64,000 nt of DNA from Obrimoposthia wandeli. Its lineage: Eukaryota. Where the stretch lies: NCBI GenBank assembly GCA_977020255.1, contig CDROCS010002657.1, positions 248,001 through 312,000 of the forward strand. The letters are read 5' to 3'. Shown here one piece after another: positions 20,877 through 51,340 of this stretch (its first letter is position 1; each line of letters starts with the position of its first letter). The notes below the pieces were generated by a model that was not told the DNA's origin, did not search any database, and worked only from the letters and a program-made list of their open reading frames with translations. Made by a program: the position numbers and the translations under genes.

Positions 20877-22754
20877 TGTTAGGTTTGAGAATTAAGAAAT
20901 TTAAATATTTTAGTCGATTAAATACTAAAATGGAAATCCTTGAAAGCAAGGTTGAAAATTAAATTAAATATTAATTTTAGTTTTAGAATTGAAATTAGTG
21001 GAAGTTAGGGTAAAAATTAGGAGGACCACGAAGGTCGTGTATAATGTGAGATGTATAAAAGTTAAATTAATTAACCCAAAATTGCAAGATTTAGAGTTAA
21101 TTAAAAGAAAAACGAAGAAAAACGACTAATTAAGAAAGTCGATCAAACCGAAAAGAATATAAATTCCGAGAAGTTGATTGACAAGAACGTCAATTAAAGT
21201 AAGTCCTTTTCGTATAGAGAGTGAAATTAACTTCTTTTCAGCTGTCGATTGATTGACAGACTTGACACTATATAAGTCAGACCAGAACGCACACAACGAC
21301 AGAGTCAACTAGAAAAAGAAAAGGTAACGAAGGAAATCAATATCTCCGACCGACAATCCACCACGAATCGGTAAGTGGTGATCGAAAACTCTGTAGATTA
21401 AAATTATTTTAGATTTTTAGTCGACAGTAATTGAAGGCAAATATCGAATCCGTAATTGAAGGCAAATATCGAAACCGTAATTGAAGTTAAATATCGAAAC
21501 CGAAATTGAAGGCAAATATCGAAACCGTAATTGAAGTTAAATATCGAAACCGAAATTGAAGGCAAATATCGAAACCGTAATTGAAGTTAAATATCGAAAC
21601 CGAAATTGAAGGCAAATATCGAAACCGTAATTGAAGTTAAATATCGAAACCGAAATTGAAGGCAAATATCGAAACCGTAATTGAAGTTAAATATCGAATC
21701 CGTAATTGAAGTTAAATATCGAAACCGAAATTGAAGGCAAATATCGAAACCGTAATTGAAGGCAAATATCGAAACCGTAATTGAAGTTAAATATCGAATC
21801 CGTAATTGAAGGCAAATATCGAAACCGTAATTGAAGTCAACCGCCAGACTCGCAAGCGCTCCATACGGATCCTGCATCGGACATCCCACTAGTCGCAGTA
21901 TTTGGTAAGCCAACCGACTAGAGCATTCATTGCCCCTAGTTGGCAATTAGGATACCTTCATTACCCCTTGTTGGTAATTCTAAATTTTAACCTGTTAAAT
22001 AGATTCATTGCCCCTAGCTGGCAATTAGGATTGCTGACTCTTTAACTCAATCATTGCCCCTAGTTGGCAATTAAGATCATCTATTCTATTCATTGTCCCC
22101 AGCGACAATTAGGAATGATACCGATCTTTTTCCCGTAAGACTCATTGTCCCTAGCTGACAATTCGGTTCATTGTTAGTTGACACCATTGTAGTTGACAAT
22201 TCGGAGTAAGTTTTCATTGTCATCTTTGACAATTAGGTTTTTAGGAGACCCATTGTTCACAGTGGACAATTCGGGGTCAAACACACAGCAGATAGAGTTA
22301 AGGAATCAAGAAACTTTATCTAGATATAAGAAGTAGGAGCGAAGAAATTTAAGAGAGTTGCGTTATAGATTAACCAACCTAAGTAAGAAGAATAAACCTA
22401 AAAGCTTAATCACCTGAACGTAAAATCGATACGTGGTTCATCCCCACTTCTTGTAGAGACTTACAGAAGTCCTAGGAATTTTATCATACTTTTTAGAAAA
22501 TACGTACCTAAACGTATTGTTGTGTTAGTTACGTGAATTACAAATAAACAATTTCCTACATTAAAACAAGTTGTTTTTGCACCCTTCAGAATAAGAGACA
22601 TCAAATCAAATACCTTCAGATAGTACAAGAGATTAGGCAACCATAACACTAAGTAGGCCACGACCAACTTTAAGACCTGCTTCTAATCGAACTCACGTTG
22701 GGGCCCTCCGCATTCAAGAGGATCTGTACCAAGTTTCGTATAGAAACCCCAACA
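20877..22754 (+). mobile_element. Solo LTR (1,878 bp), related to the LTR at 59717-61020
   Basis: TGTT...AACA termini, 4-bp TSD TAAG. Shares 5' blocks (AAATCCTTGAAAGCAAGGTT) and 3' blocks (AAAATCGATACGTGGTTCATCCCCACT...TAGAAACCCCAACA) with the second LTR. Orientation is assumed. Confidence 0.9.
21427..21838. repeat. 25-bp minisatellite, ~16.5 copies, inside the solo LTR
   Basis: Unit (T/A)AATTGAAG(GC/TT)AAATATCGAA(A/T)CCG with starts at 21428, 21453, 21478; two variants alternate over much of the array. Confidence 0.95.
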
Positions 22755-25700
22755 TAAGAATAAATTAAAATTAAAATAAATTACATTAGTACATTAGCTA
22801 AGATATTTTTTGACGTAAATTATTCATTTATAAGACTATTTTATGCTGCAATGATAATTTTGATTGTTTATTATACTATTATTTAGTTTTTGAATGAAAA
22901 ATAACATAAATATAAACTAGAATCTGTTTGAGGACTAATATTGATTGACGTATTTTATACATAATTGATGATTCGTAAAACTATTTTTTATTGCAATGTT
23001 AATTTTGATTGTTTATTTTATTAATATGTATTGTTTAAAGTAAAAATAATACATTTGAATTTATATATACATTATACAGAGGAAGCATATGTTAGTACGC
23101 GTTCAATCAATGAATTAAAAAATTATATCTTTTTTATCCAGATGATTATGTACGTTTCAGTCGAAGAAGGTAGTCCAGGAACCGGTTCAGGCGGTTCTGC
23201 GAACTTTTATATTTTTAGGAACCGGTTCGCGCGAACCGGTGCGAACCCTTGAATCCCACCACTGGCTGTAGCGCAGGCCTCTCTCTCCAAGATGGACCAG
23301 ACACAAAAGTCCAGAGGGTTCAAGTCAGGTGATGAAGGAGGCCACAATTCCTTCCTCCAGAAAGCTGGAAAGTGATTCTCACACCAGTCCTGAGTTTTGT
23401 TCGCAGTGTGAGAGGGCGCACCGTCCTGTTGGAATGTGAAAGGGTCATTTTTGAAATGTTTCTTCATTTCAACATGGGCTGGAGTCAAAATATCCTGGAT
23501 GTATGAGTTTGCGTTAACTTTGGCACCCTCTTTAACAAAAATGAGAGAGGATCTCCAATTCTCAGAGATGGCAGCCCATACCATTACCGAGCTAGGTTTT
23601 TGGCGACGGTAAACGGATTTTACCAAACTGGGAATGCTATCAGCACTCTTAGCTAAAATTCTGTCGTTCTGCGAGTTGAACTGGGTCTCAACAGTGAACA
23701 TTTTTTCATCAGAAAAGACAATTACCCCAGCATCCGTGCCATCCTTCTTTCGGTTCAGGAGAATCTTGACTCTTTCGACCCTCTTCTGTTTTTGCAATTC
23801 CGTCAGTTGTTGTCTGTTGGTCATCTTGAAAGGGGATAACTTGAGATCATCTTTGACAATAGTTCTGACAGTTTTTTCGTCAACTTTGAAGTCCTTGGCC
23901 ATTTTCCTCATTCTTTGTTTGGGGTTCCTCCTTATTCGCTCCCTAACGGTCTTTATTTTGGCTAGGGTGCGAGCAGTTCGGGGGTGTCCACTTCTGGGAC
24001 GATCGTCTGATGTCCCAAGTTCTTTGTATCGGTTTACTGCATCCCGAACTGTTGATTTTGGAGCTTTTAAGATCTTAACAATCTCTGGGTTCGTCTTTCC
24101 CGCGCAATGAAGTTGGATAATGGCCTCACGTTTACTCATTTTAAACAAATGCAAATTAAATTTTAGGAAATTTGGATCTGAAACATATAAATATATGTAT
24201 CTACAAACAAAATAATCCAAAAATGGATAAATTTAGTTAAATAATAATATCTTTAATTCAATTTTCAAAATTCGATCAGGAACTTTCTCCGGACCCTGTA
24301 TATGGATTAATTCTTAATTTCATCAAAATTATTCCTGTATGTCTACATCTTTATTTTCTCTCTTTTTAAATAACACTGTGTAACAAATACAAACTTGTAT
24401 CTTTCATTTTACTGAAAAGCATATATTTAATATAAATGTTTAGCTTATTTCGAAAATGTTATTAAAAATCCATTTAGTATGGATTTTGAGATATCGACAT
24501 TGTCAGAAACACAGTTTTAGGCACAAAATAACGATTTTTCACCTGCAGATGCGAATAGTGTGTAACTTGAATATTAGACGACAATGAAAAGTGACGCTTC
24601 AAATAGTGTATTTTACGAGTTTGTGTGGTGAAATAAAATCAATTTTTTAATACACGAACCACTCAAAACTACATTAATAAATAGGACATGAAATATTCAC
24701 TTTTATTTATCAGTTATAATTCTTTGCAAAATTTAAATTTAACTTTCAATCTTTAGCTTAAATTGTAAAATCTGTACCAGAGAAAGAAAAATCTGTATTG
24801 ATTAAGGAAAAACTTCTAACAAATAAAAAATTTCAACCATTGCTGGTTCCAAAACAGAATTGTCTTACCAAAACGTTTTTCGTACTAAACCAAACGATTT
24901 AAAGAGCAGATACTGTCGAAATTCATTATTATTTAAAGTTAGTCTCTTATTATTTAGTCTCTCAGTGTTTCGAAACCGAAAATCGAATATCTTCTTCTTT
25001 AACGCATATCGTTCTCAACATTTCAATTCTGACAGCTTCGTAAATCCATTTTAAGAGGTAAAATAAAGTAAAACGATTTTTAAAAATAGGGAGCCTGTGT
25101 GGAAAAGAAAATTAAGTTTGAAGATGATTTAAATTTAGAAAATAATTTTAGTGCAAAATCATTCCACGAATAGTTGTGTCTAAATGACAAATTATAAAAT
25201 AGATCAAAGTTTAAATGTTCCAATTGTGTTTCTGAAACATATTGTCATGACAACGGATTAACCCTCAAAATAAAGCGCCAATGGAGGACGAATTAACTCT
25301 ATTTGCTGATAGTCGACAAACTGGTTGCTAAGTGAGCAGTATTTGTTTCAGTGTTACTTCTCTGTTGACAGACGAATCTCTAAATTGAAGATTAGTGTCG
25401 AGTCATCTTGACAAAGTGCAGACAAATTTATTTTTGATTTACAACCTCATTGGTTGTACCAATAATTTCGGATTTGCAACATCATCTTCACAATAACACA
25501 AAGTGCACTGTTGGTAAGCTAAATCTACTCTTCAGCAGTTCAGTGAAAAGAATTGTGATATCTGATATGCATCGGGTGCTGTTTAAATCCGGATTTGGCT
25601 ACTAGCTTACTTTTAATTATTCAGAGAAGCAAAGAATTCCGGGCTTCTTGGGCGACTTTGCTAAATTTACATTGCTATATGACAATAAATAAAATGAACA

Positions 25701-30110: not shown

Positions 30111-30868
30111 TGATGATAATTTCGTGATAATTCAAAACAGTGACTCAATAACCACAAATTCCAATAGAAAATTAAATAGAATAATGAAATAAGTATTCTC
30201 TGAACAATTGCTTAGATTCAAGTCGACATTCTGATTACGTAATATTTCTGTTGCTAAGAAGTCGAATGAATAATTGGCCGGTGAATCGTGTTGTGTCTTC
30301 AATTTTCCCGCGTGCATTTGAATGATCCGGTGTAAAGTTGTATTTCATATCGCATTAGTTCACACTTGCTGTCGTTAGCAGTTATAATTGTGTGTCGAAA
30401 AGGAAATTCCTGCACAGCGAGGAAATTATTAGATAAAAAAGAATAAAGTTTCAGGATTGTGACTTTTAAATAAAATATATTTCTCTTTTTTGCTGAAGCA
30501 AACACAACACAGACCCAATTCTGACAGATATTTTAAATAAAGCAAAATTATTTCAAATTGAATGTTTAACTCTTTGGATTGCAAAAGATTTAAGCACAAA
30601 AATTCGCTCAAAAATTACAGACAAAATCTGAGTAACAGTTTAAATGCACTGGAGAAAATTTCCACTTTCATTTAAAACATCCGCGATAAAGAGAGAATTA
30701 TTTTATCTAGATGACCAAATGATGGAGATAACTAAATTATTTCATCAGAAAAATAAAAGTTAAATTATTTTCGTAAGGACTCCAGTGACATAAGCAGATG
30801 TTGACAATCAAATCTCTGAAGGTCTCGAGGCTTACACAAATTATGTAAATTCATTTGGAATTTGGGCG

Positions 30869-31173
30869 TTCCAGATGCAGAGGGGAAATTGTCGATGAGT
30901 TGTCTCCCCTCTAGAAAGGTGCTAAATCTTCCAGATGCAGAGGGGAAATTGTCGATGAGTTGTCTCCCCTCTAGAAAGGTGCTAAATCTTCCAGATGCAG
31001 AGGGGAAATTGTCGATGAGTTGTCTCCCCTTGAGAAAGGTGCTAAATCTTCCAGATGCAGAAGAGAAATTGTCGATGAGTTGTCTCTCCTCGAGAAAGGT
31101 GCTAAATCTTCCAGATGCAGAGGGGAAATTGTCGATGAGTTGTCTCCCCTCTAGAAAGGTGCTAAATCTTCCA
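30869..31173. repeat. 60-bp tandem repeat, ~5 copies
   Basis: TTCCAGATGCAGAGGGGAAATTGTCGATGAGTTGTCTCCCCTCTAGAAAGGTGCTAAATC repeated with few substitutions. Confidence 0.97.
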
Positions 31174-31691
31174 TATGCGTAACTACGAGCGGTGGGGTTT
31201 GCGAACGCTTCATCGTTTAAAAAATTAAATAACTCGAAATAGTAAAACGCTATTATGTAATGTCTCAAATGGCAACAATCCCAGTCAAAGTCGTTTTTAT
31301 AATAACGGACATATTTCAGAATGTTTTTGATATTTACCAATCCCGACTCAAGATTCTCTCTGGGCTATTCATATAATTCGCTCATTCCATGCCTTTGTCT
31401 CTCCGTTCGAAGATGTTTATAACGCAACTTGATAGAGAACGTATTCAATATATTTGAAATTCGCTATCCTGGCTATGCTGGTTACAACAGTTTATTGAAA
31501 TTGAAGCCCAGGTCCGGAGATACAACCATAAGCTAGTAATTAATACAGTCAAAATGTCGTAGTGAGACAGGTGCAACAAAAATCTCAGAAGATCAATAAT
31601 AAAAATAAGTAAAAGTAGGCAATAATTATCTACAAAAGACACCTCCCCATCTTTATGACTGCTATTATCACTTCTAGACGACCTCCACAAC

Positions 31692-33387: not shown

Positions 33388-33853
33388 ATGCAAAGTCATA
33401 ATACAAAGATATCGAGATCCTGGGCCGAAGCATCATTTTCTAAATATCAGCTTATGCACAGGTCCCAGAAAGCAGAAGAAAACGTTAAGGACTTTGTGAC
33501 TGCTCTACAAAATCTCGCCACAAACTGCAACTTCAAAACTACCACGGCAGAAGTACACCGAGACGCGTATATCCGGGACGCCTTCGTGTCAGGAATTAAA
33601 CTGCAGTCAACTCGGCAAAGACTTCTAGAAAACAAAGAATGGAGTCTAACTCAAGTAAACTCCCAAGCTCAATCTCTGGAAGCTGCCATGGAAATTTCAG
33701 AAGCTTATGTTAGAAGATCAACACATTTAGACGCGGCCCATAACCTCCCGCAATCAGAATAAATAGCAGAATTTCTTACGATAGCAGCAGTCCAAAAGTG
33801 AGGGAAATGCTACTTCTGCGGAAAAGAATATCATGTAAGAAATCTATGTCCAG
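33388..33853 (+). pseudogene. Gypsy gag fragment
   Basis: QKAEENVKDFVTALQNLATNCNF...IRDAFVSGI...RQRLLE, then KCYFCGKEYHVRNLCP. The knuckle pair continues as KNATCNKCMKTGHF at ~52952 on the far side of the BEL insertion. Confidence 0.85.
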
Positions 33854-34619
33854 TGTTTCGGAGCGGAGGATAGAGTATAAAAACATAAAACTTCATGTAG
33901 AGCCTTTATTGAAACATAAACTATAATTCATCTAAATCTTTCATTGATTTAATTTAAACTTTTAAAAATATCCTTACCATAACAACTTGACTTCGATACA
34001 TCAATCACTTACATTTACATTACTTTTTATCACCAAAGTTAACTTAAATTAACCTGTTACAACACATAAAATATTTACATGAAATTTTACATAAAAAGAT
34101 GACGTCTCCAGATCCATTACCGCCCATCATCGTCATCTCACTGCCTACTATTGAATTTATTTCTAAAAGTATTTTAATATATTTTTCTCTTTCTTCTTCA
34201 ACATTCTTCTTCCAATTTGATCAGACATAATCAATCTACGGCTGATATTCTTTTAACGTCCTCTAGTGGTGTTAATCTCTCATCATTATCGCGTGGACCC
34301 AATCACATACTAACTTTTTGATTCAGCATCTGACAGGTGATAACTCCAATGAGTTATATCCACCTTCTTCTGGGAGTTCGGAAAAGACCCAATGCTAATT
34401 TACACAGTAAGATGATTCTTCAGACCAGTTTATCACTTCTAATATTGCAATCTCACTCCAGCGTCCATCTCCTCGTCTCTAATTTCCCATCTGCTCCTAA
34501 TTCCCAGTTACCTCTCTCTCTTGCTTCTCTATTTGCACCTCACGACCAATAATCGATCAGTAACGCAGTGTGCGTGCCTATTTTGTCTCGGTGCTCCAAA
34601 GGCAAGTAATTCCTTACTT

Positions 34620-36232
34620 ATCTAGCCTCCATCCAAAAGTCGTTCCATGTTTCAATGCATTTTCTCCTTAGTATCACTGGCACTGTCTTAACGCTATGAA
34701 TGCGCGTGCCTTCCGTTGTTTGTCTTTTATTACCATTGTTTGACCTTCTATTCTCCCCCCCCCCTTTATCGTGTAGAAGCCAGTGATGCTCTTCGTGGCA
34801 TCCATATGTCCGACATAACCGATTAAATCTACACTTCTCCACCGTGTGATTACTGCGTAAGCAATTCTTGCATATTTTCTCTCTCTCGACTCACTTCTGC
34901 TTCGCTGCCACTGTCAACTGTTTAACCTGCTCACATTGATCAGTATAGTGGTTGGCTCTACATTTTGCACATTCTGCCTTTCTCTCGACTATTGTGGACT
35001 GGTTTATAACCATTTTTCATTTCATTTACTATTCGAAAATAATGTGTGAGTGTAATGATGTGTGTCATTGTTCCATCTCCTAGGTTTTTCAACGTCACTG
35101 GCTTGCTTTCTTTGATTCTCACGACTTTCATTAACCTTATTGGCTTTTCTTAGATTCTCACTTTCTTTCTGGGCCCATATCTTTAACGTACATACATTCT
35201 CTTTCTCCCCGTTTTGTTGGATCCACTTCGTCCAATCCATCACTCCTAACATTGGCAACTTTCTCAACAGCTTGTTGAAAATAAACCAATTTCCAAGATC
35301 ACCCTTGTTGTCTTCTTCTCTTGCTCTGATTACTATCTTGTTTATTCATTGTAAAAAGGCGTCCAGATCTTGGTCTTCTCTCCATCTTATCACTCTAAAC
35401 CTTTCAACTTCGTCCATCAAACCTCTATAATTTCTTTCCCTTCCTCCGTACCTTTCTTCTAGCAATCTTAAAGCTTCATCGTAACTTGCATCCGTGAACC
35501 CAAGGTTTTGAATTAATCTGTAAGGTTCTGCCTCACATACTCCATCAGCTGCAGCATCTTTTCTTGCTTTGGTGCATTGGTCTGATCGATCACAGTACCA
35601 AATATTGCCCTCTAACTTTCATAATCCTTATAATCACCAAATAAATATGGGATACTAATCTTTTTTAGCCCCTTCCACACATTTTGGCCTGACATATTTT
35701 CTCTTGATTCTTGATTCTTATTTTCTCTTGACTCTTTTGTGGTTCTAACCTCAAATTCCTTTTCTGCTTTTGCTATTTCACTCTTTATCTCCTTTATCTT
35801 GAGTTGGTCTTTGTTTTCCACCGCCTGCTCCAAATCTCTGTTCTTCTGGTCACTGAATCTTCGTACGATATCCCTATATATCTTTCTTATTCTGAATCCT
35901 CTTCCGTATTCCGTGCTTCTGTCCATTCATCGCCAGCCAATATTATCTTCAACCTCATAACCCTCTCCGCCCTCTCATTGTTTTCCTCCCACATTCCCCC
36001 TTTCAACCTCATCATCACGACAATATTGCTGCCATCACCAATGCTCTCCCACATCTCCACTCTCTTTCCATGTCGTTGTAACCAGCAACTCTCCTCCTTT
36101 AACCCATATCGCTTCTGAATCTCCTCCATTGCGTCCTTTCCTGTGCAATTCCGTTTCAAGGGCACTACATTTATATGTCCCCCTATACATAAAAAGTACT
36201 GTCCCGCATCACTACATCCTCTAGTTGGCCTA
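34620..36232 (-). pseudogene. BEL/Pao Gag (ubiquitin-like domain, coiled coil, DUF1759-type region, three Cys/His knuckles); N-terminal part at 52703-52423
   Basis: LKKISIPYLFGDYKDYES*RAIF; EPYRLIQNLGFTDASYDEALRLLEERYG; CAKCRANHYTDQC; CKNCLRSNHTVEKC; CRTYGCHEEHHWLLH (BEL signature). Several stops and frameshifts. Confidence 0.85.
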
Positions 36233-37060
36233 AGTAGGTAGATGTGACACTTCTGGAACAAAGCCCCCCCCTGAGGACAAGCTCAGGTCAAGTTGAGGAC
36301 AAAAAATTTTAAGGTCAAGTTGAGGTCACGGTGAGGTCAAGATGTAGGTCATGACCTCATGAGGTCATGACCCCCCCTATGCTTAGGAAAAATGTCTTTG
36401 TCCTGAAAGACACACATCAAGTAGGGGGATATTTTTTTTTGAGCATACCCCCCCCTTGAGCACAGTTTAAGGTCACGATGAGGACATGACCTCATGAGGT
36501 CAACTTAAGGTCACGGTGAGGACAAGATGTAGGTCATGACCTCATGAGGTCAAGTCAAGTTAAGGTCAATGTACTTTAAGGTCAACTTAAGGTCATGACG
36601 TCATGAGGACAACTTAAGGTCACGGTGAGGTCAAAAAGATTCTATTTTTAGTAACATACTTTAAATCTATATATATTTTTATCTAAAGGTGGTTTTAACA
36701 CCAATTTAACAAAATACATCTCGTGTGTGTGTTTTATAATTTATTTAAAATATCTACTTATAAAATAAAGTATTATATAATTTGATAATCATGTTTAAAC
36801 GTTCCTATATCTATCTAACAAAGACAGTCACGCATCTATATTGCAAATACTTGCATCTTTATGTAATCAATAGTAACATTTATTCTTATACATGTATATA
36901 TGTGTGTGAGTATCTAACAAAGACAGTCACCAATACCTACAAAGACAGTCACGTGTGTGTCTAACAAAGACAGTAATCAATACCTACAAAGACAGTCACG
37001 TGTGTCTAACAAAGACAATCATCAATACCTACAAAGACGTACTGCATCTATATTGCAAAA
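36233..37060 (+). repeat. Left TIR of the Polinton
   Basis: Matches the reverse complement of 51717-52422 at the tip and in the inner AT-rich part; the middle AGGTCA array differs. The inner limit is approximate. Confidence 0.85.
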
Positions 37061-37170
37061 ACCTGCAAATTTATGTAAATAATTTTTAAAATAAAGACAA
37101 GTATTTCTAACATATATATTCCTTAAAATCACAAAGGAGAATAAAAATATGTACAACACATATAAAAAGT

Positions 37171-40100
37171 TTATACAACCTCGTCCGGGTATAAAAAGTG
37201 ACCATAGGCGACTGAACGGTTTTTCTCCACCCACTTGCGCTTATCATCACTACTGCTTAAGGCAATTTTACTTAACCTTACAGTAAAAAGTTGATGATTT
37301 AGCGAGCTTATACGTTGTTGTTGTACACGCTCGCTAACGCCACTCTTATAGACAGCTAAGTAATTAGAGTGCCTAATACTCGTCTGTCGGAGACTAATAC
37401 CTTTCGCTCTCATCTGAGATTCACCTTCTGTAGTCTCTAGGCTATATGATTTTGGTCGTAGAAAAATCCCTTGCCTATAACTAAATAATCCCTTAATATC
37501 ATCTTTAAATTTTCCTATCGCTGTATTAAGCGTCGTATAAAGCGGATGGGTTTTTGGAAATTTCGAGGTATCCAACAGTCCATCAGCAATCATAGCAGGT
37601 AACAGTGATTCTTGAACATTGACATTATTACACTTCAAGAAAAATCTATCAGTGTCACCCGCTATAATTCTAATGTCGCAGTTAAATTGAACTCGATATT
37701 TCTCCAACTGCTCATATTGTAGCTCATACATACGAAGTTTGCTTAAATCTAATACCTCCTGGCCCATGTAACTAGGACGATCCAAAACAATATTTTCCTT
37801 ATCCAGTAAAACTGCAATAAGGTCCGTATCGATTTCGATTGTCCTACGAAAGTGGGCTTTACTGCAATAGGTAACCAGCTTCTGTGGAGTATTACAAATC
37901 CGGAGGTTAATTCTTTTCATCAGATTCTCAATGAGTTTTCCAAATAAAGAATTCACCTTCAGTTTGTAGTAATCCCGCTCGAAATCTGTTGTAACCGCAG
38001 CTCTTTTGAGAGAATTATCCTCAATATATTTTGAAAAAACATTAGTTTGTTCAAACTGTATTGCTCTATATACAAAATCTACCTTAGCACCAAGTCTAAC
38101 GTACATTTGTAGCAATCTAGAATGCACAACATAATGTTTCTTAGGGTAATGTGTTAATAACAATTTTTCAGTCTTACACCCTGGTGGACTCTGTTTAATT
38201 GGAGCAAGGGGAAGATCGTCGAATTTATTATGAAGCTCGTTGGGAATGGATAAATCTATTTCCAATAAATGAGCGAAGCGACTACAGGATAAATCTACTG
38301 ATTTTAAGCTGGAAATAATATTCCCCAACTCTAACCGATCAGTCACCCAGGAAAAGTTACCACAAGGTAAAAACTGGGACATAGCCCACCCGTACAAATT
38401 ATTTACATCAATGTACAAATGTTCTGTACCATTGATGGCGTCCACTATGGTGTTCATTAACAAATGTCATACCCCCGCATATCCCGGGCCGGAAGAGTCG
38501 GTACATTTCTGGATCCTGTATTAGCTCGACTCGCACAACGGGAGCAGAAGAAGAAGCCGGACGAAGCAGGGATTTGAAAGCACTCGCGAAATTCAGTCCT
38601 GGAAATAAAAACATTTATTAAAATCATTGTGAAAATCATTGTGAAAATCATTACTTTGAAAATCATCTATCTAACAAAGACAGTCACGCATCTATATTGC
38701 AAATACTTGCATCTTTATGCAATCAATAGTAACAAGTACTACATTTATTCTTATACATGTATATATATATATGTGTTAGTGTCTAAAATTAGAAAAAAAT
38801 AGAAAAATACAAACCAGGGATGGAGAAGAAATTGAGTGGCTCCAATCCATCGTCAGTAATGGCCTTGGTCCGGAATGCTGTAAACACGTATGCTAGAAGG
38901 TATACGTCTATCTTCATATAGACCAGCATATAGTCCCAGAGCGATGAGCAGCCGCTCTGAGTCCAGACCATCTTCGCCATTTCATATTGTGCTGGCTTGA
39001 TCTTCTCATCCCACTTTGGCGGTAAGCTGGTGATTGCGCGAAGAGCAGTCTCTGATACTGCCATATTGTATGGGAAGATTCCCTTGGCGCTCACCAGATG
39101 TTGCGGGAAGACCGAATGTGTAAGAGGAGTCACACCCAGGTTTTCCACAAGTTTTTCAAGTCTGCTGTTCAAAAATTGAAGGGAATCGATGAAACGTATA
39201 CAGACTCCTCCAATATACACCATCATAGCCTGGAATTTCTCTGTTGATTGAGGTATAACAGATACATTCCAGTCAGGAAACTTGCACGGTGCGTGCTTCA
39301 ATATGTGGTGCATATGTAACCCATAAGATTGTGAAAAATGACGGGAAAAGACCGATTGATTCTCCTTGATAAGTTGCATTTCGTATGCGCTGCTCCCAGG
39401 TATTCGCCAGTCATGTGATCGTGATCTCGAACTTTGTTTGTGAGTTTCTTCTTACACAGGTAACAGATTCTTGCTGCATTGAAACTCGATACCTGTTCCT
39501 GTGTGAGTTGTCGCATCACCTCGATCGCATGCTTCTTGTACCATGGGAGAACAACCTCTTTCGCCAAGTCCTCTAATTTCTGCAAAAAGTATACCACACA
39601 AGATTCCCCGGTAAAGACCGAGTAATCATGTGTATACCCTCTCGTGGCTGCAACGGGAGACATGAGCATACCGGCCGAGATTGGAAGCTGAATCTGATGG
39701 TGGATTCCATGCGGCGGTAGCACAGCCTCAAAGTCCGCGTAAACAGCAAAAGGTGGAGAAATCGTTTTCAAAAAGTCCTTAAACTCAATATGCTTCTCTG
39801 TAGGCATTGAATAAAGTGTTGTATGATCTAAATTCATCCTACAGAGCGGAACGTGTTTGGCGTAACTTATCGGACTACGGAATCCATGAAGACATTTATG
39901 GCACCAAGTACACCGAATGCAATTAGATACACCTTTGTTCCTATAATTAAGCAGCCTATTGAGTTTAGGAATACCGATATAATGAAAATTATCATTATTT
40001 TCTAAAAGGAGAAGATTGATTGGTTTAGCGTCCGGGTTTGTGGTCCTGTAAATCACATCCACATAGGGATTTTTGAAGATATCCCCATCTGTTTGCACAT

Positions 40101-40791
40101 TAGAGAACCTATTGAATGTAAATACGTTGATTGAGAGAGATGGATTCTTTCTCTCAAATCGCGGTATATTACATAGACGCATCGGCATCTCATTCTCATC
40201 AAAAACTAACTGACTCAAAAAGGCATCATATTGATTAACCCGATGAGGATTAGAGCGAAATACTTCACGGAAAAGTACAGATAAGATACTGTAAAGGAAG
40301 CAAAAAGCGTTTGAGTTCTGCACATTGATAACGCAATGTGAGAGTGCTAACTCAGATGGAGTAGGTATATAACTACTTCCCTGGAGATAGTTCATTGTTG
40401 TTTTAGTCACAACAAACGAAATCTCCAGGAAGCGGTTCACTACCCAATTACTACTACTTTGAGAATAATTCTCAATCTTCTTGTTGATCCCATCTACTCC
40501 CGCATCTATAAACCCCTCATCTATGGGGAGCCCTCTATTGGAAAAATTCCAAGCGCGTGTTTCTCCAATATTGGAAAATTCAACACGCACCCCGAATTGA
40601 ACCTTGCAAGTTGCAAACATGCTGACTGTGTCCCTTAAGCTAGTCAAAAGTGATACAGGAACTTGTAAATCGATGAGATTGTCATTAGAAACATCTAATG
40701 ACAATGTCTCAATCGTGCCCCGAAGACTAGTCTTACGCTTAACAGCATCAACCCTGAAAAACTTCGCAACATAGCTACCTGAAGTGGGCAT
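37171..40791 (-). pseudogene. polB: Protein-primed family B DNA polymerase with one intron (38599-38814) and two 1-nt frameshifts (~39316, ~38450)
   Basis: Exo motifs YADFE, FHNLMGY(D), YMKID; polymerase motifs YIDVNNLYG, KLKVNSLFGK, GDTDR (usually DTDS), PKSY, AKGI. Also an endonuclease VII-like CYLC...RDHDH...HTKCN segment and an N-terminal OTU-like Cys (FCFLY)/His (FHY) region. Confidence 0.95.
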
Positions 40792-40800
40792 AACACTTCT

Positions 40801-41242
40801 CTAACGGGTAGATGCTGGTAACGGCGCGGGGATCATACCAACTGGAGGAGGCATAACTGAAACCATTGGTGCAGCAGATGATGGTGAAGCAACTGGGGTA
40901 GTAACAGCAGCAGCAATTAAGGTAGCAATTGACGAAGCAGCAACAACTGGACCAGCAACCCGAGAAATAGTAGCAGATCTATTCTGAAAGATGGCCTTCT
41001 TGCCACGTTGCTGGAAATGACGAAGATGGACACGATGACGCGCCACAAACTCCGGCCAATCAATCTCCTCCGCGGAGAGACATACTGGACATACGTAGAA
41101 TTGTTGTCCTTTGAACTTCTGTCCAAAGTAGCTCTTCATTTTTCCGTCACATTCCTTGTGACTCTCCTCGAAGCATTCTTTGTTCATATTGCAATTCTAG
41201 AAAGAAATAAATTAGCTGAAAAAATAACAATAAACTTACCAT
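40801..41242 (-). CDS. Small Cys/His-rich Polinton protein with Pro/Ala/Ser-rich tail; probable 43-nt intron after the ATG
   Basis: ATG(41242-40)|GTAAGT...TTTCTAG|AAT TGC AAT ATG joins in frame with ORF 40801..41187; CPVC motif; TATATAAGC upstream. Confidence 0.65.
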
Positions 41243-41373
41243 TTTCAATTTCGTTTATAATAGGGGATTATTTGTTGATTGATGCTTGCTTATATACTAT
41301 TTTCGAGCTAGTATTAAGCCAATCAGATTCATACATTATTTAAACCAACCAGATTAATTTAAAACAGAATAGT

Positions 41374-41883
41374 TTACTGACAGATGTGAGTAGTTGAATT
41401 TTCATTAATATTTAAATAATCCAAACTAGCTGCAAAGCATTTCTTGTATGCACAATGCTCGCCATGTTTAATATATGGACAATTGATATTTGATGGATTT
41501 AATTGTTTTAATGTTTTCGAGTAATTTATCACTCTAAATTCAGGAAAATATTTATTGATTGTCTTTATTTTAGCTCCATTATTTTCATCCAAAACATAGA
41601 AAATTGATTTGGATACATCACAACAACGTTTTATTTCCTCAGTTATTTCTTGTATCTTGAAATAACTATTACCATCAACTAGTTTTAATCGATGGTAATG
41701 CTTAATGAGATATCTATTTATTTTTCTTGATTTTCTATTCATCATGTCCCATATGGGTTGCTTTTTAAAAACATAATGTTTGGGATAGAAGATTGCATCC
41801 ACATCCATTATACATAGTTCTTTTATTACAAATTCAGTATTATTATCAATAAAAGCTTCAAAATCAATAAAATAAACAGACAT
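41374..41883 (-). CDS. DEDD/DnaQ-like nuclease-fold protein with C-terminal Cys/His cluster
   Basis: N-terminal YFIDFEAF (D-x-E) followed by IKEL, and C-terminal CPYIKHGEHCAYKKC. Intact ORF of 169 aa. The fold call is motif-based only. Confidence 0.55.
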   Translation of the reverse strand: MSVYFIDFEAFIDNNTEFVIKELCIMDVDAIFYPKHYVFKKQPIWDMMNRKSRKINRYLIKHYHRLKLVDGNSYFKIQEITEEIKRCCDVSKSIFYVLDENNGAKIKTINKYFPEFRVINYSKTLKQLNPSNINCPYIKHGEHCAYKKCFAASLDYLNINENSTTHICQ

Positions 41884-41920
41884 TTTTTATAGCAATAATT
41901 TTGTTTGATATTGTTTATAT

Positions 41921-42298
41921 CTATTGTTTATGCTTTAACCAAAGCAGACATAGTTGTCCACATGAGTGCGTTAAAACATTTTGATAATGTTTCTTACTAA
42001 AATGTACTTTCTTTCCAGAATCAAGTACTGTAGATACTAATTTAGAAGGGTAATATATCCCAAAGGGGTCAAAAACAAAGATTTCATTTTCTTTAACATG
42101 TATTGCAATCCAATGTTCACCACGCAAATTAGATGAATGTGTATTGATTACATATCCACCTAGTCGAGTCAAAGAGGGGATGTGATCAAGACTGTAGACT
42201 CCATTGAAATGCGAACCGAGTAGTTTTCTTCCGCTTTTTGTTATCTCGTCCGAACTAGAATATATATTAATTAATAAATTCAAACTGATTTACTTCAT
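41921..42298 (-). pseudogene. Adenain/Ulp1-like maturation cysteine protease
   Basis: GEHWIA (His), FDPFG (Asp), YQ...SCGQLC (Gln/Cys). The in-frame ATG at 42298 is followed by TAA at codon 3. Confidence 0.9.
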
Positions 42299-42327
42299 TT
42301 ATATCTTCTTTATTGTTTTCATTCTGT

Positions 42328-43537
42328 TTATACTAGTACTGTTCCTCCCTTGGTAATTTGAACCTCAGAATCGAATACTCCATAGATTATAATATTAGTA
42401 GGATGTTCAAGTGCTTTTGAAAACTTGATTTCTACTTTCAAATTTCCCTGTTTAGGGATTTGAGCTTGATTAATATCGAAATCAGGAGAGAGAACAAATG
42501 TGAACAGTGTATACTTGTCCTTGAAATCAGTCATTGAAATTCAAATATTAGCATCCTTATCCAAATGACCAAGATTTCTAATTAAAGATTGCACATAAGA
42601 AAACACATAATCATCGTTTTCAAAGTCATTCGTATAAGATTCTTGATAATCAATATTTCGTGCAAGTTTAATTGAACTCACATTCATGTGTCCAAATTGA
42701 GAAACCTCATTTTTAGACTCACCTCCATAGGTAGAAGTGTTTTGGAAAGCAATTAAAACAAAGTTTGGAAGTTGCATATCACCAAAAATCTGATCCCGTA
42801 GGGATAGCGTTAGAAACAAGATTAGTTTTTCTAATAGGATAACATGCATTTTGCTTCTCCAACCCTATTCGATGTGCAACGAGTACAGATGGTTCCACCT
42901 TTACTCTTCGAACCAGCAGTTTTGCTTCCGTAATCTCAATTGCGGTTTTAATAGTATCGTCGTAAACAACACTAAAACCTACTGGATTTCTCTTCATTCG
43001 AATATGTGCACTTACACCGAGTAAAAGATACTTTGGTTGCTTAAAGAAATCCAACTGGAGACTCCCACAAAGTGACAATACTTTAGACTTTGCAATCGAA
43101 GCAGTTCTTCTTTTTTCATCATTGTCAAACCCAATTGCATCAAGATTAATCAATTTCGTATCATTACCGTAATTCAGTAATGTTTCAATCATTGCTTTAT
43201 GAGTGTAGCTAGTATTATTTCCCTCAACTTTCACATTATTGAGACTGAGAATCACATCCTTGAAAAGAGTATGCAACATGTAATTAGCTGATTTGATATC
43301 CATACCATCATCCAAATCACCTCCACCTTCCTTTGTAACTTTCAATTTAACGAGAAATAAACTATCATTCAAATCAAGATATTGAGTATTGGATCAATTA
43401 ATATTGAATTCTAAATCCGGAGAAGATGTCCCGTTAACCGTATTTGTCGGACATATTTCTTCAAAACTAGCACTATCAACCACAACCTGAGGTATAGGTT
43501 TATCAAATATACACAATTCAGTTTTAGCACAACTCAT
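42328..43537 (-). pseudogene. Major capsid protein (double jelly-roll)
   Basis: MSCAKTELCIFDKP...LEFNIN*SNTQYLDL...FKDVILSLN...AMIETLL...AKLLVRRV...FTFVLSPD...IYG. In-frame TGA at ~43395 and ~42541, and a frameshift at ~42790. Confidence 0.9.
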
Positions 43538-43899
43538 TACTTAAAAATTGTTCCACCTAGTTTCAAACGTTTGTTTATACCCGATGCTTTAGATGTTTTC
43601 TTACGTTTATAACCACTTCCCTTTTGAGTTTTCTTTTTCAAAAATTCAGCTAGACTTGGTGAAATTTCATTCACCTGATCCAAGGCTGCATCCTTTAGTG
43701 TGGGAAGAAATTTCTCATCACTTGACAAGTATTTTGATCCAACATTAGCAATAAATTTCCCGAGTCGCTTGAGTAGTGGGAAAGCAAAGCGACCTAAAAC
43801 CTTCATCCATCCTGATCCATACTGTTTTCCCGCAAAATAAGGCAAATCACCTCCTTGCATCGGTTTACTATACGCATCGATTATACTTGAATCAATCAT
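43537..43899 (-). CDS. Small basic virion protein with amphipathic helix (between minor and major capsid genes)
   Basis: QGG...FAGKQYGSGWMKVLGRFAFPLLKRLGKFIANVG...QKGSG; position and Gly motifs as seen in Polinton structural modules. Confidence 0.7.
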   Translation of the reverse strand: MIDSSIIDAYSKPMQGGDLPYFAGKQYGSGWMKVLGRFAFPLLKRLGKFIANVGSKYLSSDEKFLPTLKDAALDQVNEISPSLAEFLKKKTQKGSGYKRKKTSKASGINKRLKLGGTIFK

Positions 43900-44918
43900 A
43901 ATTTACGAAAATGAACCGTTAAACTTGTTTTAGCTCCGTAAGCAAATGTAATTAATCTTCCAGAATCATTACGTATATTAACTTAAATATTGTTTATAGA
44001 AGAAGAACTCACGGGAATATACTTTGGATTTTCAATTGGAATATGTATAACATCACCATACTTGTGCTTTTCCTGTTGAACCCAAATTGCTTTAATTAAG
44101 AGAAGTTTCCTTCCTCCTACGAATATTGGTTCGGTAATACTCGTGTAGATATAAATCTGATTATATGCATTAGTCATTTTAGGAAAAATCTTTGCTTTGA
44201 AAACCTCATTTTTATTTTCAAATTCATTTTCATCAAAACCGATAATTGAGGCTAATTATTTATCCATGATGATTTTATCAATATTGGATTTCAATTTGAA
44301 ATGAATCAATTTATTAACTAGTTTAAAGTTTTCAAATACATTTGGTAACACTGTTTTAAAATGTTTACACATACTTTTGCTATCGGCAAAAAGAAAATCA
44401 TTGGGAACTGAATATATTTTCCTCTCGCGTTTAACGAATCTGTTTTTTATCTTGAATGTAATTATCGGATACTTGACATGATTATCCATAATTTGTGAAA
44501 CTGCATGATTTCCTTTTTCAACTTTAGACGGAAATCCATATTGTTCTGCAACAATTTCATCATTAAAAATTATTTCAAAATTATCCCCTTTTTCCATAAT
44601 TTGAATTTGATTCTCTTTATTTAAATAGATTGTGAAATCATCGCCTGACTTAATACGAGCCAAATCCATTTGACCCTTATCAAATAGTGAAGTCACATCA
44701 GTTACTTTATCAGCTTCACGTTGGGTAATATATTCAATCTCAGTTTCACTTTGAATAGATAGAGGAGAGTAATTGAAAGAAAATTCCGTAAGAGCAGCTT
44801 CCCAAGCACCAGGTAAATTGATTGAGCTTTGATAATCAATACTAAAACTATTAGCAGTATTATTCGGCTGATTTAATGGCGAACCATTACTTGGTAATAC
44901 AACATACGTTGAGTTCAT
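43896..44918 (-). pseudogene. Minor capsid (penton-like) protein
   Basis: YVVLPSN...NNTANSF...INLPGAWEAALTEF...IYIYTSITEP...YIPV...I*VNIRNDSGRLITF...LTVHFRK. In-frame TAA at ~44256 and ~43983. Confidence 0.85.
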
Positions 44919-45886
44919 TCTATTTGAGAAGCTAATATCCAACTAGGTTCAGTATATCCATGCCACTTAACATGATATTGTTTATGCTTTCCTCTACCTT
45001 TTGTCTCTAAAATTTCTTGGATTCTATATACATTCGGTTTCTCAGACAAGACTTGTAATTCCTCATGATAAAATTTACCCGTGATTACATTATTGGTTTC
45101 ATCCTCAATGAAATACATTACCGGCACACGTTTATTATCAATTTTAGTTATACGAAATACTTCATCGCTCCAATTCTCTTTGAAATTCTTTATAAAAGGA
45201 GTAGTACTAATTTGAGAAATACGTACATAATCACCAACTTTATACTTGGGTTTCCGTGCAACTTGACTTTGGTTACGGCGTTGCCAAATTTCCATAGCAT
45301 TCTCATCTGTAACATCAACGGGTCTCTTTCGGTCTAATGATGAGTGTTCACTATGATTGTATGCATGTATTATTTGAGGTAAAACAGTAACCCAGGACTT
45401 ATTTCCCTGCTTTGTGAAATACTTTTTCAAACGATCTCTCAATGTTCGATTAAAACGTTCAACTAAAGCGGCTTTATATTGGGAAAATACTGAGTAATGA
45501 TTAATATTATGTTTTTTCAATAGTGTTTCAACATGTTTATTATAAAACTCCTTTCCACTATCCGTTTGGAAATTTCTTGGTTTTATTTCTTTAATCAAAA
45601 GCTTCATTGCGGCTAAAACATAGGTACCAGACTTAGACTTTAATGGAATAGCTCGCGCGAATCTGCTAAAGACATCAACACAAGTTAAAATATATCAATA
45701 TCCGTTGTTAATACTAGCATACGGAATCATTTCCATCAAATCTGCTTGCCATAAATCATTCGGGCCGCTCGTTTTGTATGATCTCGTTGGGAACCGACGT
45801 CTCATTGGTTTGTTTAAGCTGTAAGCTAATTTTGAAACCCCTTTGTAACCAACGGGGTGACTTGGATCGAACCATATTTTCTCCAT
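44915..45886 (-). pseudogene. Retroviral-like DDE integrase with C-terminal chromodomain
   Basis: WQADL, QTDSGKEF, VERFNRTL, and YHVKWHGY...SW (chromodomain). One in-frame TGA at ~45695. Confidence 0.95.
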
Positions 45887-45983
45887 TGCAGTAAGACGAT
45901 TTGATTTTTAAATTATATTTAGGAATAGATGGAAGTGATCCCATATATAAATTCATATTATTGATTCGAATTTATGTTTATAA

Positions 45984-46406
45984 TCATCGGTTTATTAGTC
46001 TACTAGCAAGTGCACCAACTATTGAGCTAATAATTGGTACGAGAAATCCTAAAAATCCACCACTTTGCTTATAAAGCAACTTACGTTTACCGATTCGTGT
46101 TTTGGCGTGAAACAAAGCAAGTAGAGGTTTCTTATGCCGATTCAGGTTAGCCTTGACAATTATTTTACCAGAAACTATTTTCTGTATCATATTAAGTAAA
46201 TCATCAATTACAAAAGTAGGGAATGATTTAAGAATAGCTGGGCGGCGAATAGCAGGTGCACGCATGAGAAAATTGAAATAGGCAATACTCCTAGATTTCT
46301 TAACAACAGTTCTTTTCGATTTTTGAGCAACCATTTTCCTTGCACTTAAAACTGATTTAATCAATTTTTTAACTTCGGGTTTAACAGTTTCCTTTTTAAA
46401 ATTCAT
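45984..46406 (-). CDS. Basic core/virion protein
   Basis: Lys/Arg-rich, ending KRKLLYKQSGGFLGFLVPIISSIVG, a typical Polinton small structural protein tail. Confidence 0.7.
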   Translation of the reverse strand: MNFKKETVKPEVKKLIKSVLSARKMVAQKSKRTVVKKSRSIAYFNFLMRAPAIRRPAILKSFPTFVIDDLLNMIQKIVSGKIIVKANLNRHKKPLLALFHAKTRIGKRKLLYKQSGGFLGFLVPIISSIVGALASRLINR

Positions 46407-47054
46407 CTTCTCAAAACTGGTTTCTTTGTTTGTTTATAGACGGTTATTCCCGATGGATTGAATACATCAGTTCTAACTCTAAAGTCATCGGGACAATCTT
46501 GAGTAAAAATCAATAAAAATGTATCCATGAGGAATAGTAGTTGCATCTTGAAATGAATCAATTAAAAACTTTCTATTATTCGGGTAAGCTTGTCTTGAAA
46601 CAAAATCAACAATCGTCTGATCACGTGGATTCTTGAAGAGAACAAGATAATGTACATTTAAATTACGAGTTCTATGGTTCCCTCCTTGATGAAATAGATT
46701 TTGTGTGATGAAAATAACAGTTACTTCCCGATGTCGTGCTATTTTAGTGAATAAATTATTGAAATCACTCTCTTTATTTGCTTCTTGATATAAATCATCA
46801 ATAACAATAACATCATGTCGTTGTAATCGCTCAGACCAATTATCATCGAATCCATTAATGACTTTTATATTTTTGATTTTCTTAAACTCTTTACTGGTTA
46901 AACCAGCTTCTCCATCTCCTCCCTGCTTCCAATATATTTTATTAAACTTAAAGGTAAAGTATTTATTATTTTGTAGTAATTTACATACAAAATGTGTTTT
47001 CCCACTACCACTAGGACCTACAATCTGAAAAACTGAATTATTTTCTAAGTTCAT
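46403..47054 (-). pseudogene. FtsK/HerA-type packaging ATPase
   Basis: GPSGSGKT, VIVIDDL, ARH...ITQNLF, LFKNPRD. An extra T in a T-run at ~46505 shifts the frame; the corrected tail DFTQDCPDDFRVRTDVF...LRR* ends at 46403. Confidence 0.95.
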
Positions 47055-47097
47055 ATTAAAAATATTAGATTATCGGAATAATGTTTATAAGACAAAA

Positions 47098-47382
47098 CTA
47101 TTTAAAATATTTTATTACGAAACATCCAGCAACAAACAATAAAAAACTCTTCTTGTAGAAAAAGCTCCTTTTCTCTTCTTTCTTTGCACATTCTTTCTTC
47201 TGATTGTATCCATGAATGAGAAGATTGACTGCCTTGTCATGCACCATTCTTCTTACGTGCTCCTCCAGGGGTAGATTTGAGACATCAATGAGTTGCAGGA
47301 CATCTGGTTCTATGACATTCTTCGAGATGAAGCTCTTCACCGCCTTGTCAACATCTTGCTTGAAATAGTTTGGAGTAGACAT
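47098..47382 (-). CDS. Orphan ~94-aa helical protein with C-terminal hydrophobic tail flanked by lysines
   Basis: The ATG at 47382 sits 30 nt after TATATAAGC; the protein ends FFYKKSFLLFVAGCFVIKYFK. Confidence 0.65.
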   Translation of the reverse strand: MSTPNYFKQDVDKAVKSFISKNVIEPDVLQLIDVSNLPLEEHVRRMVHDKAVNLLIHGYNQKKECAKKEEKRSFFYKKSFLLFVAGCFVIKYFK

Positions 47383-47443
47383 AATGATGATGAAGAAGTA
47401 AAAAGTAATCTGCTTATATACTATACATCTGAAATCTGATTGG

Positions 47444-47580
47444 TTAATAAAGACTAATAAAGACACTGACTAATAAAAACACTGACTAATAAAGACACAA
47501 AGACACTGACTAATAAAGACACTGATTAATAAAAACACTGATTAATAAATACACTGATTAAAGATAAAGACGAATAAAAT
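47444..47580. repeat. ~16-bp tandem repeat (GACACTGACTAATAAA), ~7-8 degenerate copies
   Basis: Directly visible between the 47098 ORF promoter and the phosphatase stop codon. Confidence 0.85.
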
Positions 47581-48306
47581 TTACACATGATAACGATTAA
47601 AAATACGTATTTGATGAAGCATAGCTTCATTAGGAGCAGCAATAGTCCGTTTAGCTTTAACAAGATTCGAAGCAGCAGTAACACCAATCGAATGAGATAA
47701 AAATGCAATAACAATGCAAGCAGCATGTAAACTACCATAATGACTACATACTAAAATCTTACCACCATTTTCGATAGTTTCTTTAATTATATTATTAGTC
47801 TGTTTATAATACTTCATTATTGTTTCTCCTAATTTTGAGTTTACAAAGACAGAAGTATATTTTAATTTCTTATAAGATATTTTATCCAGTATAGATGTAT
47901 TGATTACATGAGTGAAATTGGAGTTCAAAAGATTAGTTTCATCAAACCCATCTCGATAATTATCAATATATAATTGATTTACTAAAATCTCACTCATCAC
48001 GGTTTTGTTTAACTTTTCTACATTATGTTGAGTAAATCTAGCACTAAACAAGCTATCAAAAAGATGGGTCATGTGGTTCATTTCCATACTCGAAGCATGA
48101 GCTATTATGGGTTCCATAAAAGCCAAAGCATTTAAAAAATCTATCCGTCTCTTATCTTCAATAATTGGATCTATAATAATTTCTTCTTCTATCGTCACTT
48201 CATCAATAGTTTCTTCTCTTCTTATAACTGTTGTTGTTGTTGCTGGTGATGATGTTGTTGCTGGCGATGATGTTGCGGCTTCTGGTGCTGAATTGATTTT
48301 CTCCAT
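47581..48306 (-). CDS. Dual-specificity phosphatase-fold protein, catalytically dead
   Basis: MSEILVNQLYI...THVIN...GGKILV-CSHYGSLHA-ACIVIAFL...VKAKR...PN...HQ. The HCxxGxxRS loop is replaced. Confidence 0.85.
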   Translation of the reverse strand: MEKINSAPEAATSSPATTSSPATTTTVIRREETIDEVTIEEEIIIDPIIEDKRRIDFLNALAFMEPIIAHASSMEMNHMTHLFDSLFSARFTQHNVEKLNKTVMSEILVNQLYIDNYRDGFDETNLLNSNFTHVINTSILDKISYKKLKYTSVFVNSKLGETIMKYYKQTNNIIKETIENGGKILVCSHYGSLHAACIVIAFLSHSIGVTAASNLVKAKRTIAAPNEAMLHQIRIFNRYHV

Positions 48307-48626
48307 TTTATCAATTCCCAGTCAATTTAGTCTTATATATATATTAAACGAGGTTTAATTTCATAGGAGCATCAGTTTCATCATATGATTTGATTGGAGT
48401 ATTATTCAACCTTTCCATTGTACTTAACAACTCATGTAAATGTATTTGATGACGTAACCTAAAGAGTTAAATAAACTACATATAAATATTACTCATGATT
48501 ATTTTTCCTAATTAAAGCATTGAGAATAACTGAAGCAAGATCTTTTAATGCATCCTGAACCTCTTTACATTCAATAATTTCATTCATTTTATGATAAAGC
48601 AAATCAAATATTGTTTATAACCCATG

Positions 48627-48845
48627 AAAAATCTATTTTTAGAGCACATTACAACTATTTGCAACATTACAACGTTTGCAACTATTTGCAAGTAATGACA
48701 TGTGATGTCTCTAAGAGAAATCTATTTTTAGACCACATTACAACTATTTGCAACATTACAACGTTTGCAACTATTTGCAAGTAATGACATGTGATGTCTT
48801 TGTCTCTAAGAGAAATCTATTTTTAGACCACATTACGACTATTTG
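48627..48845. repeat. ~90-bp internal repeat, 2.3 tandem copies; a further copy at 50467-50537
   Basis: AAATCTATTTTTAGACCACATTACAACTATTTGCAAC...GCAAGTAATGACATGTGATGTCT. Confidence 0.9.
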
Positions 48846-49363
48846 GTTTAGGAAATAAATAACACAAGTGTGGAGATCTATATTAAATAAAATACATTCA
48901 ATCAGATACTCATAGTTTAAAGATTTAAAACCAAGTATCATAATCTTCCCGCTAGCAAAAATGTTCACGCATAGGGGATTGTATTTGATGTATCGAAGTC
49001 CCGGGAAGATTTCTGGCTCGTAAACAGCTTCCGATCCCATACTCTTGCTCATCTTGTTTAGGTTTATTGATGTTTCTAGCTTGCTGCTGAGACTGATTGA
49101 TTGCATTCTTTCGATTTTTATATCAAAAGGAAGACTGCTTTCATCCCGCACTGTTTTGCAACCCATTATTCTGCATGTACCTAAATTATAATTATATATA
49201 AATGTAAAAATAAATTACCAGATTTGAAAATGATAATAGTGTAACCTTCACACTTGAGTCGATACTGATGAGGCTTCGAAGTCCGAAATGGTAAGTGTTG
49301 AATGTTACTTACAACCATTCCCTTGTAATTAATATTCACTAATTTGATATTGTGAAGTAGCAT
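48771..49363 (-). CDS. TATA-binding-protein-like (two TBP repeats), two exons 49363-49219 and 49180-48771
   Basis: Splicing the 38-nt GT-AG intron gives IIFKSG|TCRIMGCK, parallel to the repeat-2 segment NIFASGKIMILGFK. YEPEIFPGLRY matches TBP YEPELFPGLIY. Confidence 0.88.
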
Positions 49364-49426
49364 TTCTGATTATTATAAACTGATTTCTTCTATTTATACT
49401 ATTTGAACATCTATTTTTAGATTTGT

Positions 49427-51276: not shown

Positions 51277-51340
51277 TAAATTTTTGTGTCTTTATTTGTA
51301 TTATTTTATATATATAAACAATAGTGATACTTTAATATTT

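Follow-up and report, generated by a model that had tools for sequence, protein, structure and literature searches.

How does a ubiquitin-like sequence come to lie directly in front of the Gag protein of an LTR retrotransposon, and what would it do there? The question is raised by a stretch of 64,000 nucleotides from the genome of Obrimoposthia wandeli (1.35 Gb, AT-rich), referred to below as the window. An earlier note had read in it, on the minus strand at positions 35995–36201, a segment of 69 amino acids with RLKGG at its end and Met directly after it. The segment was found exactly there; its Gly-Gly codons occupy positions 35995–36000 and it has no Met of its own. We consider it probable that such segments are old captured ubiquitins placed between cargo from host mRNAs and Gag, and that a host deubiquitinase cuts after the Gly-Gly and thereby frees Gag-Pol. 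Both the cleavage of Gag and the expression of the element are what we infer from the features described here.

The locus and uninterrupted copies of the element

The window contains a nest of mobile elements. A Ty3/Gypsy element on the plus strand (33105–55483; RT and RNase H matches), bounded by a 93-nt direct repeat at 33105 and 55391, holds the BEL/Pao copy in its gag. The BEL/Pao copy in turn holds in its leader a Polinton/Maverick with inverted ends (36233–52422, no strand assigned). Both are bystanders, although the Polinton inactivated the BEL/Pao copy. The latter lies on the minus strand and comprises the 3' LTR (33854–34203, its end set by comparison with the LTR ends of sister copies), Gag up to the start of the protease region (34648–35994, located by tblastn against the natural frame of the sister copy L031), the ubiquitin-like domain (Ubl) and the 3' end of the leader (36202–36232). 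Beyond the Polinton follow, on the same strand, the 5' part of the leader (52423–52772, about 95 amino acids, common to the family of this element, family 1) and a remnant of the cargo region (52773–52958) that includes a short relic of eIF3d near 52,958. Gag begins at the Met after the Gly-Gly and carries DUF1759 and Cys/His knuckles. It is interrupted by frameshifts near 35,890, 35,510 and 35,015 and by five stops in the tblastn comparison with the L031 frame; the single frameshift assumed in the earlier reconstruction at about 35900 is thus real, and further breaks accompany it. Most of pol is missing between the 3' LTR and the protease start, and 5' of about 52,958 the cargo, the primer site and the 5' LTR are all gone. 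The window copy is one dead member of a high-copy family, for which a search of the same genome returned at least 150 scored matches (1,221 candidates) with identities of 73–100%.

The leader and the Ubl had previously been joined by removing the Polinton together with one copy of its target duplication. This joint proved correct. The duplication is the 6-bp sequence GGCCTA (36227–36232, within the 3' end of the leader, and 52423–52428), and the interruption-free copies L031 and L032 continue across it in a single frame. In copies without the Polinton, leader, Ubl and Gag share one stop-free frame of 821 (L031), 697 (L032) or 634 (L033) amino acids, which in L031 extends to the protease. Since natural uninterrupted copies carry the fusion, it is real and not an artefact of reconstruction, and the Ubl is in frame with Gag in intact family members, as had been proposed. 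The LTRs of L031 are direct repeats at 1272–1553 and 8524–8806, about 7.25 kb apart. In these elements the presumed tRNA primer-binding site TGGTAGCAGAG comes after the LTR. L031 and L033 encode, in this order, a DUF1759 Gag, protease, RT, Pao peptidase/RNase H, integrase and DUF5641.

The family-1 leader had no Pfam match and a low Atlas recognition score, and its structure was predicted without confidence (pLDDT 24–38 over most of its length, mostly under 40); the Ubl behind it modelled well. Family-1 copies differ in how many times a 60-bp in-frame repeat is present 5' of the leader (L032:7823–7942, L037:1860–2039).

Some minor observations concern the neighbourhood. The short sequence at the 5' break of the BEL/Pao copy (52950–52965 and 33846–33853) can be read either as part of the element or as carrying on the Gypsy zinc knuckle, which suggests a microhomology deletion. 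The Polinton carries ORFs for polymerase, integrase, ATPase and an adenain-type protease and, on the minus strand at 47581–50447, ORFs for a dual-specificity phosphatase, a TATA-binding protein (TBP) fragment and a BIR plus RING (IAP-like) protein. Another family-1 copy (L032:1077–5198) adjoins ORFs that by eye resemble pieces of a Polinton polymerase and of TBP. The window also contains an open Tc1/mariner-type transposase frame of 341 amino acids (23207–24232, minus strand) and tandem arrays at 21324–21923 and 30809–31238 with 25-bp and 60-bp units. Matches to TAL effectors were dismissed as sums of short repeats.

The ubiquitin-like fold and its distribution in BEL/Pao

From sequence alone the evidence for a Ubl in the window was weak. 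The Pfam ubiquitin model matched the segment with an E-value of 0.024 and 14.9 bits, below its curated cut-off of 25.4, and matches of any strength were obtained for 7 of 21 family copies; sister lineages pass the cut-off. The Atlas ranking placed unnamed clusters on top and the ubiquitin cluster fifth at 0.92. The structural check proposed in the earlier note gave support. A model built from the 21 natural copies reached a pLDDT of 74.6 and showed the order beta-beta-alpha-beta-beta. Nearly all Foldseek matches to this model were ubiquitin or ubiquitin-like chains (best E-value 6.7e-5, TM 0.73), with only about 20% identity between the window Ubl and ubiquitin in the Foldseek alignment. VIA-align likewise returned ubiquitin-like domains (Z 9.0, rmsd 2.4, 69 residues aligned), and the uncleaved UBLs of Rad23 and Dsk2 scored within 1 Z unit of its best rows. 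Model, Foldseek and VIA-align thus support a predicted beta-grasp (ubiquitin) fold for the window segment.

Queries consisting of leader, Ubl and Gag start found no relatives among 549 candidates, and against 1.84 billion representatives they gave just two repeat-rich false matches. Relatives outside the genome surfaced solely via Gag-Pol queries. The Gag-protease query led to protein P0003, which is 29% identical. In it, fragments of kinesin and Sec23/24 precede a ubiquitin recognised by Pfam, the junction LRGG|M and then Gag-Pol. With P0003 as the query, 120 BEL proteins were listed, and the top seven other than P0003 itself all had a ubiquitin or a ubiquitin tail before Gag; this ranking took in the ubiquitin region. 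Within the same genome, 17 of the 20 ubiquitin-matching loci inspected were BEL elements, which belong to three more families (families 2–4). The ubiquitins of these families, which were found by that very domain and so do not form a ubiquitin-blind sample, are 52–77% identical to host ubiquitin. A Gag-led sample blind to ubiquitin gave the same picture: 29 of 30 DUF1759 loci had an upstream ubiquitin or Ubl, all 29 with Gly-Gly, although 28 of the 29 belong to family 5 or a close variant. The family-5 Ubl is 41% identical to that of the window in an ungapped alignment. Taken by its sequence relatives, the Ubl is a descendant of ubiquitin itself. The identity of the sister-family ubiquitins to the host protein points to ubiquitin as the donor and makes a deubiquitinase a likelier processing enzyme than a SUMO protease. 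SDE2 was considered as another donor and found unsupported, as host SDE2 (L039) ends RLLGG|K and had no evident likeness to the Ubl in a comparison by eye of the visible part of its UBL; Lys after the Gly-Gly occurs in no element.

Altogether 13 lineages were compared, namely families 1–5 and eight outside polyproteins (P0003 and P0005–P0011), the latter gene predictions known here from protein sequence. L-x-G-G precedes Gag in all 13, P0005 displaying the ubiquitin tail alone. In RT/RNase H the lineages are mutually 39–82% identical. An IQ-TREE analysis of this region with 44 chosen rows united the 12 ubiquitin lineages included in one clade with a support of 100/99, and a FastTree analysis of 137 rows including family 5 united all 13 with a support of 99. 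The sole clade member without a visible ubiquitin, P0058, is N-terminally truncated and begins inside Gag. These elements resemble other BEL/Pao (Belpaoviridae) in their DUF1759 Gag, DUF1758 protease, RT, Pao peptidase/RNase H, integrase, DUF5641, LTRs and primer site, and differ from them in the ubiquitin before Gag, which was found in none of the 111 BEL proteins outside the clade. Host ubiquitin as a query had no match under an E-value of 0.6 in 113 of the 120 BEL proteins, P0005 and P0058 among them. On these trees, ubiquitin before Gag is a trait of one BEL/Pao clade and not a peculiarity of the window element. The clade is possibly the Flow superfamily of a BEL/Pao survey (de la Chaux and Wagner 2011, PMC3118150), which would be recognised by grouping with BEL1-I_SM and BEL-4-I_NV, names given in supplement file 3 of the survey, on a PR-RT-IN tree; the word ubiquitin is absent from the available text of the survey and from nine of its supplements.

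Host-derived cargo and the long reading frame

The stretch between primer site and ubiquitin varies from copy to copy and comprises hundreds of codons. From 17 loci, 146 of 157 ORFs on both strands were compared with Pfam, the 11 ORFs of L138 being left out. Twenty of them matched, and all of these were sense ORFs (20/72 sense, 0/74 antisense). The matches represent nine host genes, encoding pyruvate kinase, EF1-gamma, HSP70, glutamate dehydrogenase, a GUCT helicase, a PIN_6 nuclease, eIF3d, eIF5 and an ABC ATPase. A piece of family-5 cargo that Pfam missed is HSP60 (match to solved HSP60 chains, E-value 1e-37); the cargo of the outside proteins includes kinesin, Sec23/24, HSP90 and a TRAF finger. 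Intron loss was examined for the eIF3d cargo. The host eIF3d gene has an intron of 71 nt, and 19 of 44 aligned cargo loci join the exons exactly while none of the 44 covers the intron. These exact joins, together with 90–95% identity to the host gene, show a recent origin of the eIF3d cargo from spliced mRNA.

Three further cargo pieces deserve mention. Families 5 and 1 have one piece in common (L215:6285–8180 and L080:1562–2083; 55% identity over 161 amino acids), which was either taken by each family on its own from one host mRNA or passed from one family to the other. A pyruvate kinase fragment of family 2 sits within the LTR itself (L130:2223–2669, L133:2033–2311). Residues 1–100 of P0009 form a cargo stretch without Pfam match, apparently lacking the catalytic Cys region, which by its motif we take to resemble part of a SENP/Ulp protease.

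Is the cargo translated? The end of the LTR and the primer site jointly spell an ATG. In all seven family-5 copies with a primer site this ATG starts the sole long frame. In L133 it is followed by 352 stop-free codons up to the ubiquitin, within a frame of 1,102 amino acids in all, and in L215 the frame from ATG to ubiquitin is likewise without a stop. Against this reading, the junction ATG is in frame with the ubiquitin in a minority of copies, namely in 10 of the 31 family-1 loci that have a primer-site match and in 3 of the 7 family-5 copies; we attribute the out-of-frame cases to indels and decay after insertion. Four outside proteins apparently read the primer site in another frame (GSRAW/GSRAC), which implies a start inside the LTR for these. 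Among shared cargo deletions of at least 12 nt, 12 of 16 have a length divisible by three (p 8e-4). For the remaining four, gaps nearby make up the difference in most of the copies whose alignment continues. Small private indels are in frame in 9 of 30 cases. As read from these deletions, selection is shown to keep the reading frame of the cargo.

The proposal that the protein starts with a leader of about 100 amino acids consequently has to be abandoned. It had been derived from a copy whose 5' end is missing beyond about 52,958, and the region upstream is a variable mosaic of host mRNAs. Judged from the fuller copies, the family-1 leader is the mere tail of a longer frame that opens at the ATG of LTR and primer site. 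Four runs of unknown kind, available as contigs only, contained no joints on a family-2 copy, which is neutral as evidence on expression.

Proposed processing at the Gly-Gly junction and known systems

The steps of the mechanism that we favour would be as follows. During replication, reverse transcriptase would acquire cargo by switching templates onto co-packaged mRNAs. The resulting frame would be translated from the ATG of LTR and primer site, and a host enzyme of USP or UCH type would cleave after the Gly-Gly. Gag would thus obtain a defined N-terminus whatever cargo precedes it, and the piece of cargo and ubiquitin would mostly be waste. The earlier note had proposed to check whether the junction GG|M is conserved. 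Gly-Gly is indeed retained in every lineage; Met is not, since the next residue is M in six of the 13 lineages, S in three, T in two and G in two, and never Pro. Freed Gag would begin with one of these four residues, all of which are stabilising under the N-end rule.

A start of Gag at or after the junction by leaky scanning, internal entry or splicing, with cargo and ubiquitin as passengers or as a separate product, appears quite unlikely to us. It would suit the Met of the six lineages, the window's included, and the leader that models as unstructured. The S, T or G in the remaining seven speaks against it, as do the frame kept by the cargo deletions and the selection acting on the ubiquitin. 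A splice acceptor at the ubiquitin start is not supported, as the preceding codon is CAA or AAA and hence no AG acceptor in 14 of 17 loci of families 2–4.

Selection on the domain was estimated from one family pair, 2 versus 4, which leaves family 1 aside. Here the ubiquitin had a dN of 0.21 and a dS of 1.08 (dN/dS about 0.2), which shows purifying selection in this comparison, and the adjacent Gag had a dN of 0.51. Between element and host ubiquitin the synonymous sites are saturated, with a pN of 0.15–0.18. Saturation and the low dN/dS indicate that the capture is old and that the domain has been maintained.

Such selection on the whole domain would suit any protein function, for instance that of a ubiquitin which stays on Gag as folding aid, binding module or proteasome tag limiting Gag. 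The closeness of Rad23 and Dsk2 in VIA-align agrees with this idea, as does the Arg at ubiquitin position 72, which is kept in six of the 13 lineages, the window family among them, and replaced in seven. An uncleaved UBL, however, has no need of Gly-Gly, and the ubiquitins of the clade, whose identity falls in a natural series from 77% to about 20%, all keep L-x-G-G and are never followed by Pro. We therefore regard a permanently attached domain as improbable. Gly-Gly is kept in 50 of 68 family-1 loci and gone in 18. Its loss is expected from the decay of dead copies, so that copies within a family add no support, and these counts were rejected as evidence of selection. Three close family-1 copies share G-E in its place and could be a sublineage that spread without Gly-Gly.

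The cut after the Gly-Gly might also be made by the element's own aspartic protease, as the polyprotein encodes a protease region, or by a protease borne in the cargo, of which the SENP/Ulp-like stretch of P0009 could be a trace. We hold this to be very improbable. Retroviral-type proteases prefer hydrophobic sites, unlike Gly-Gly, and no thiol protease common to the clade emerged from the Pfam scans.

Cleavage by a host deubiquitinase, the reading that we prefer, has precedents. According to the parts available of PMC8310069 and PMC13517609, the pestivirus strain BVDV CP Rit carries an S27a fragment and an N-terminally truncated ubiquitin, which is cut by cellular hydrolases and frees NS3. 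As in these inserts (BVDV Osloss, CP Rit), a captured ubiquitin stands before a viral protein and would set its N-terminus, and as in CP Rit another host fragment precedes it. Multi-copy pestivirus inserts resemble P0008, whose approximately 1.5 ubiquitin units point to polyubiquitin as the source or to renewal at a later time. The inserts of pestiviruses arose recently, sporadically and independently of one another, whereas the ubiquitin of the clade is old, fixed and drifted to about 20% identity with L-x-G-G kept, and the part that changes is the cargo in front of it. A diverged Ubl ending in Gly-Gly is also found in SDE2, FUBI-eS30 and the ubiquitin-ribosomal protein fusions, from which it is removed by a USP, as would be the case here. 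In those proteins the Ubl opens the chain, unlike the internal Ubl of this selfish element. The same processing is used in laboratory ubiquitin fusions. For SDE2, the available part of PMC13572447 describes cleavage by USP5 of a UBL less than 20% identical to ubiquitin, for which Gly-Gly, L70 and R73 are needed; the window Ubl has Gly-Gly, Val and Arg at these positions. That this Arg, the equivalent of ubiquitin R72, is kept in no more than six of the 13 lineages speaks against such cleavage, as does the low identity of the window Ubl to ubiquitin.

Pieces of spliced host mRNA in sense orientation, sometimes from several genes, are likewise known from LTR-mediated retroposition (Tan et al. 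2016, PMC5131818, in part) and from maize Bs1. The elements that flank those chimeras are discontinuous, and the chimeras are deemed non-autonomous, in contrast to the present elements, which retain Gag-Pol in frame with ubiquitin between. Microsimilarity at switch points is a mark of such retrocopies. The accessible main text of PMC5131818 has no occurrence of "ubiquitin". Ubiquitin before Gag was absent from the openly accessible journal papers searched on BEL/Pao or on retrotransposons and ubiquitin, and is not described in the available part of the giant-transposon review PMC6431247. The clade thus appears to combine known kinds anew, with a ubiquitin spacer fixed in a retrotransposon clade behind captured host cargo.

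The usual description of gene-capturing LTR elements is that of broken passengers; this clade appears to capture and yet retain Gag-Pol. By borrowing a host ubiquitin-processing step, a trick otherwise found in sporadic pestivirus mutants, the elements would pick up host genes without crippling themselves. Their many spliced host-gene fragments can lead annotation astray, and small-RNA pathways that act against housekeeping genes could be fed by them. A more speculative reading, which we consider rather doubtful, regards the ubiquitin as an evolvability device. The 5' end would then be a translated, disposable bay that samples abundant host mRNAs at little cost, and the released cargo-ubiquitin with its free Gly-Gly, or host-matching RNA, would act on the host, perhaps as tags that can be conjugated, as decoys or by shielding against small-RNA silencing. 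If so, the clade would be a continuously running machine for shuffling host genes with a built-in release switch.

Two minor observations concern other ubiquitin-like sequences of the genome. In the family-5 leader, a stretch without Pfam match (L201:2560–2900, minus strand) could by eye be another beta-grasp unit in a more advanced state of decay. Ubiquitin-like units spaced at 270 bp and 43–47% identical to host ubiquitin form tandem arrays at L149 (G000:C2050) and in similar form on C2592, C1456 and C4682; most of their units end RLR-stop, without Gly-Gly.
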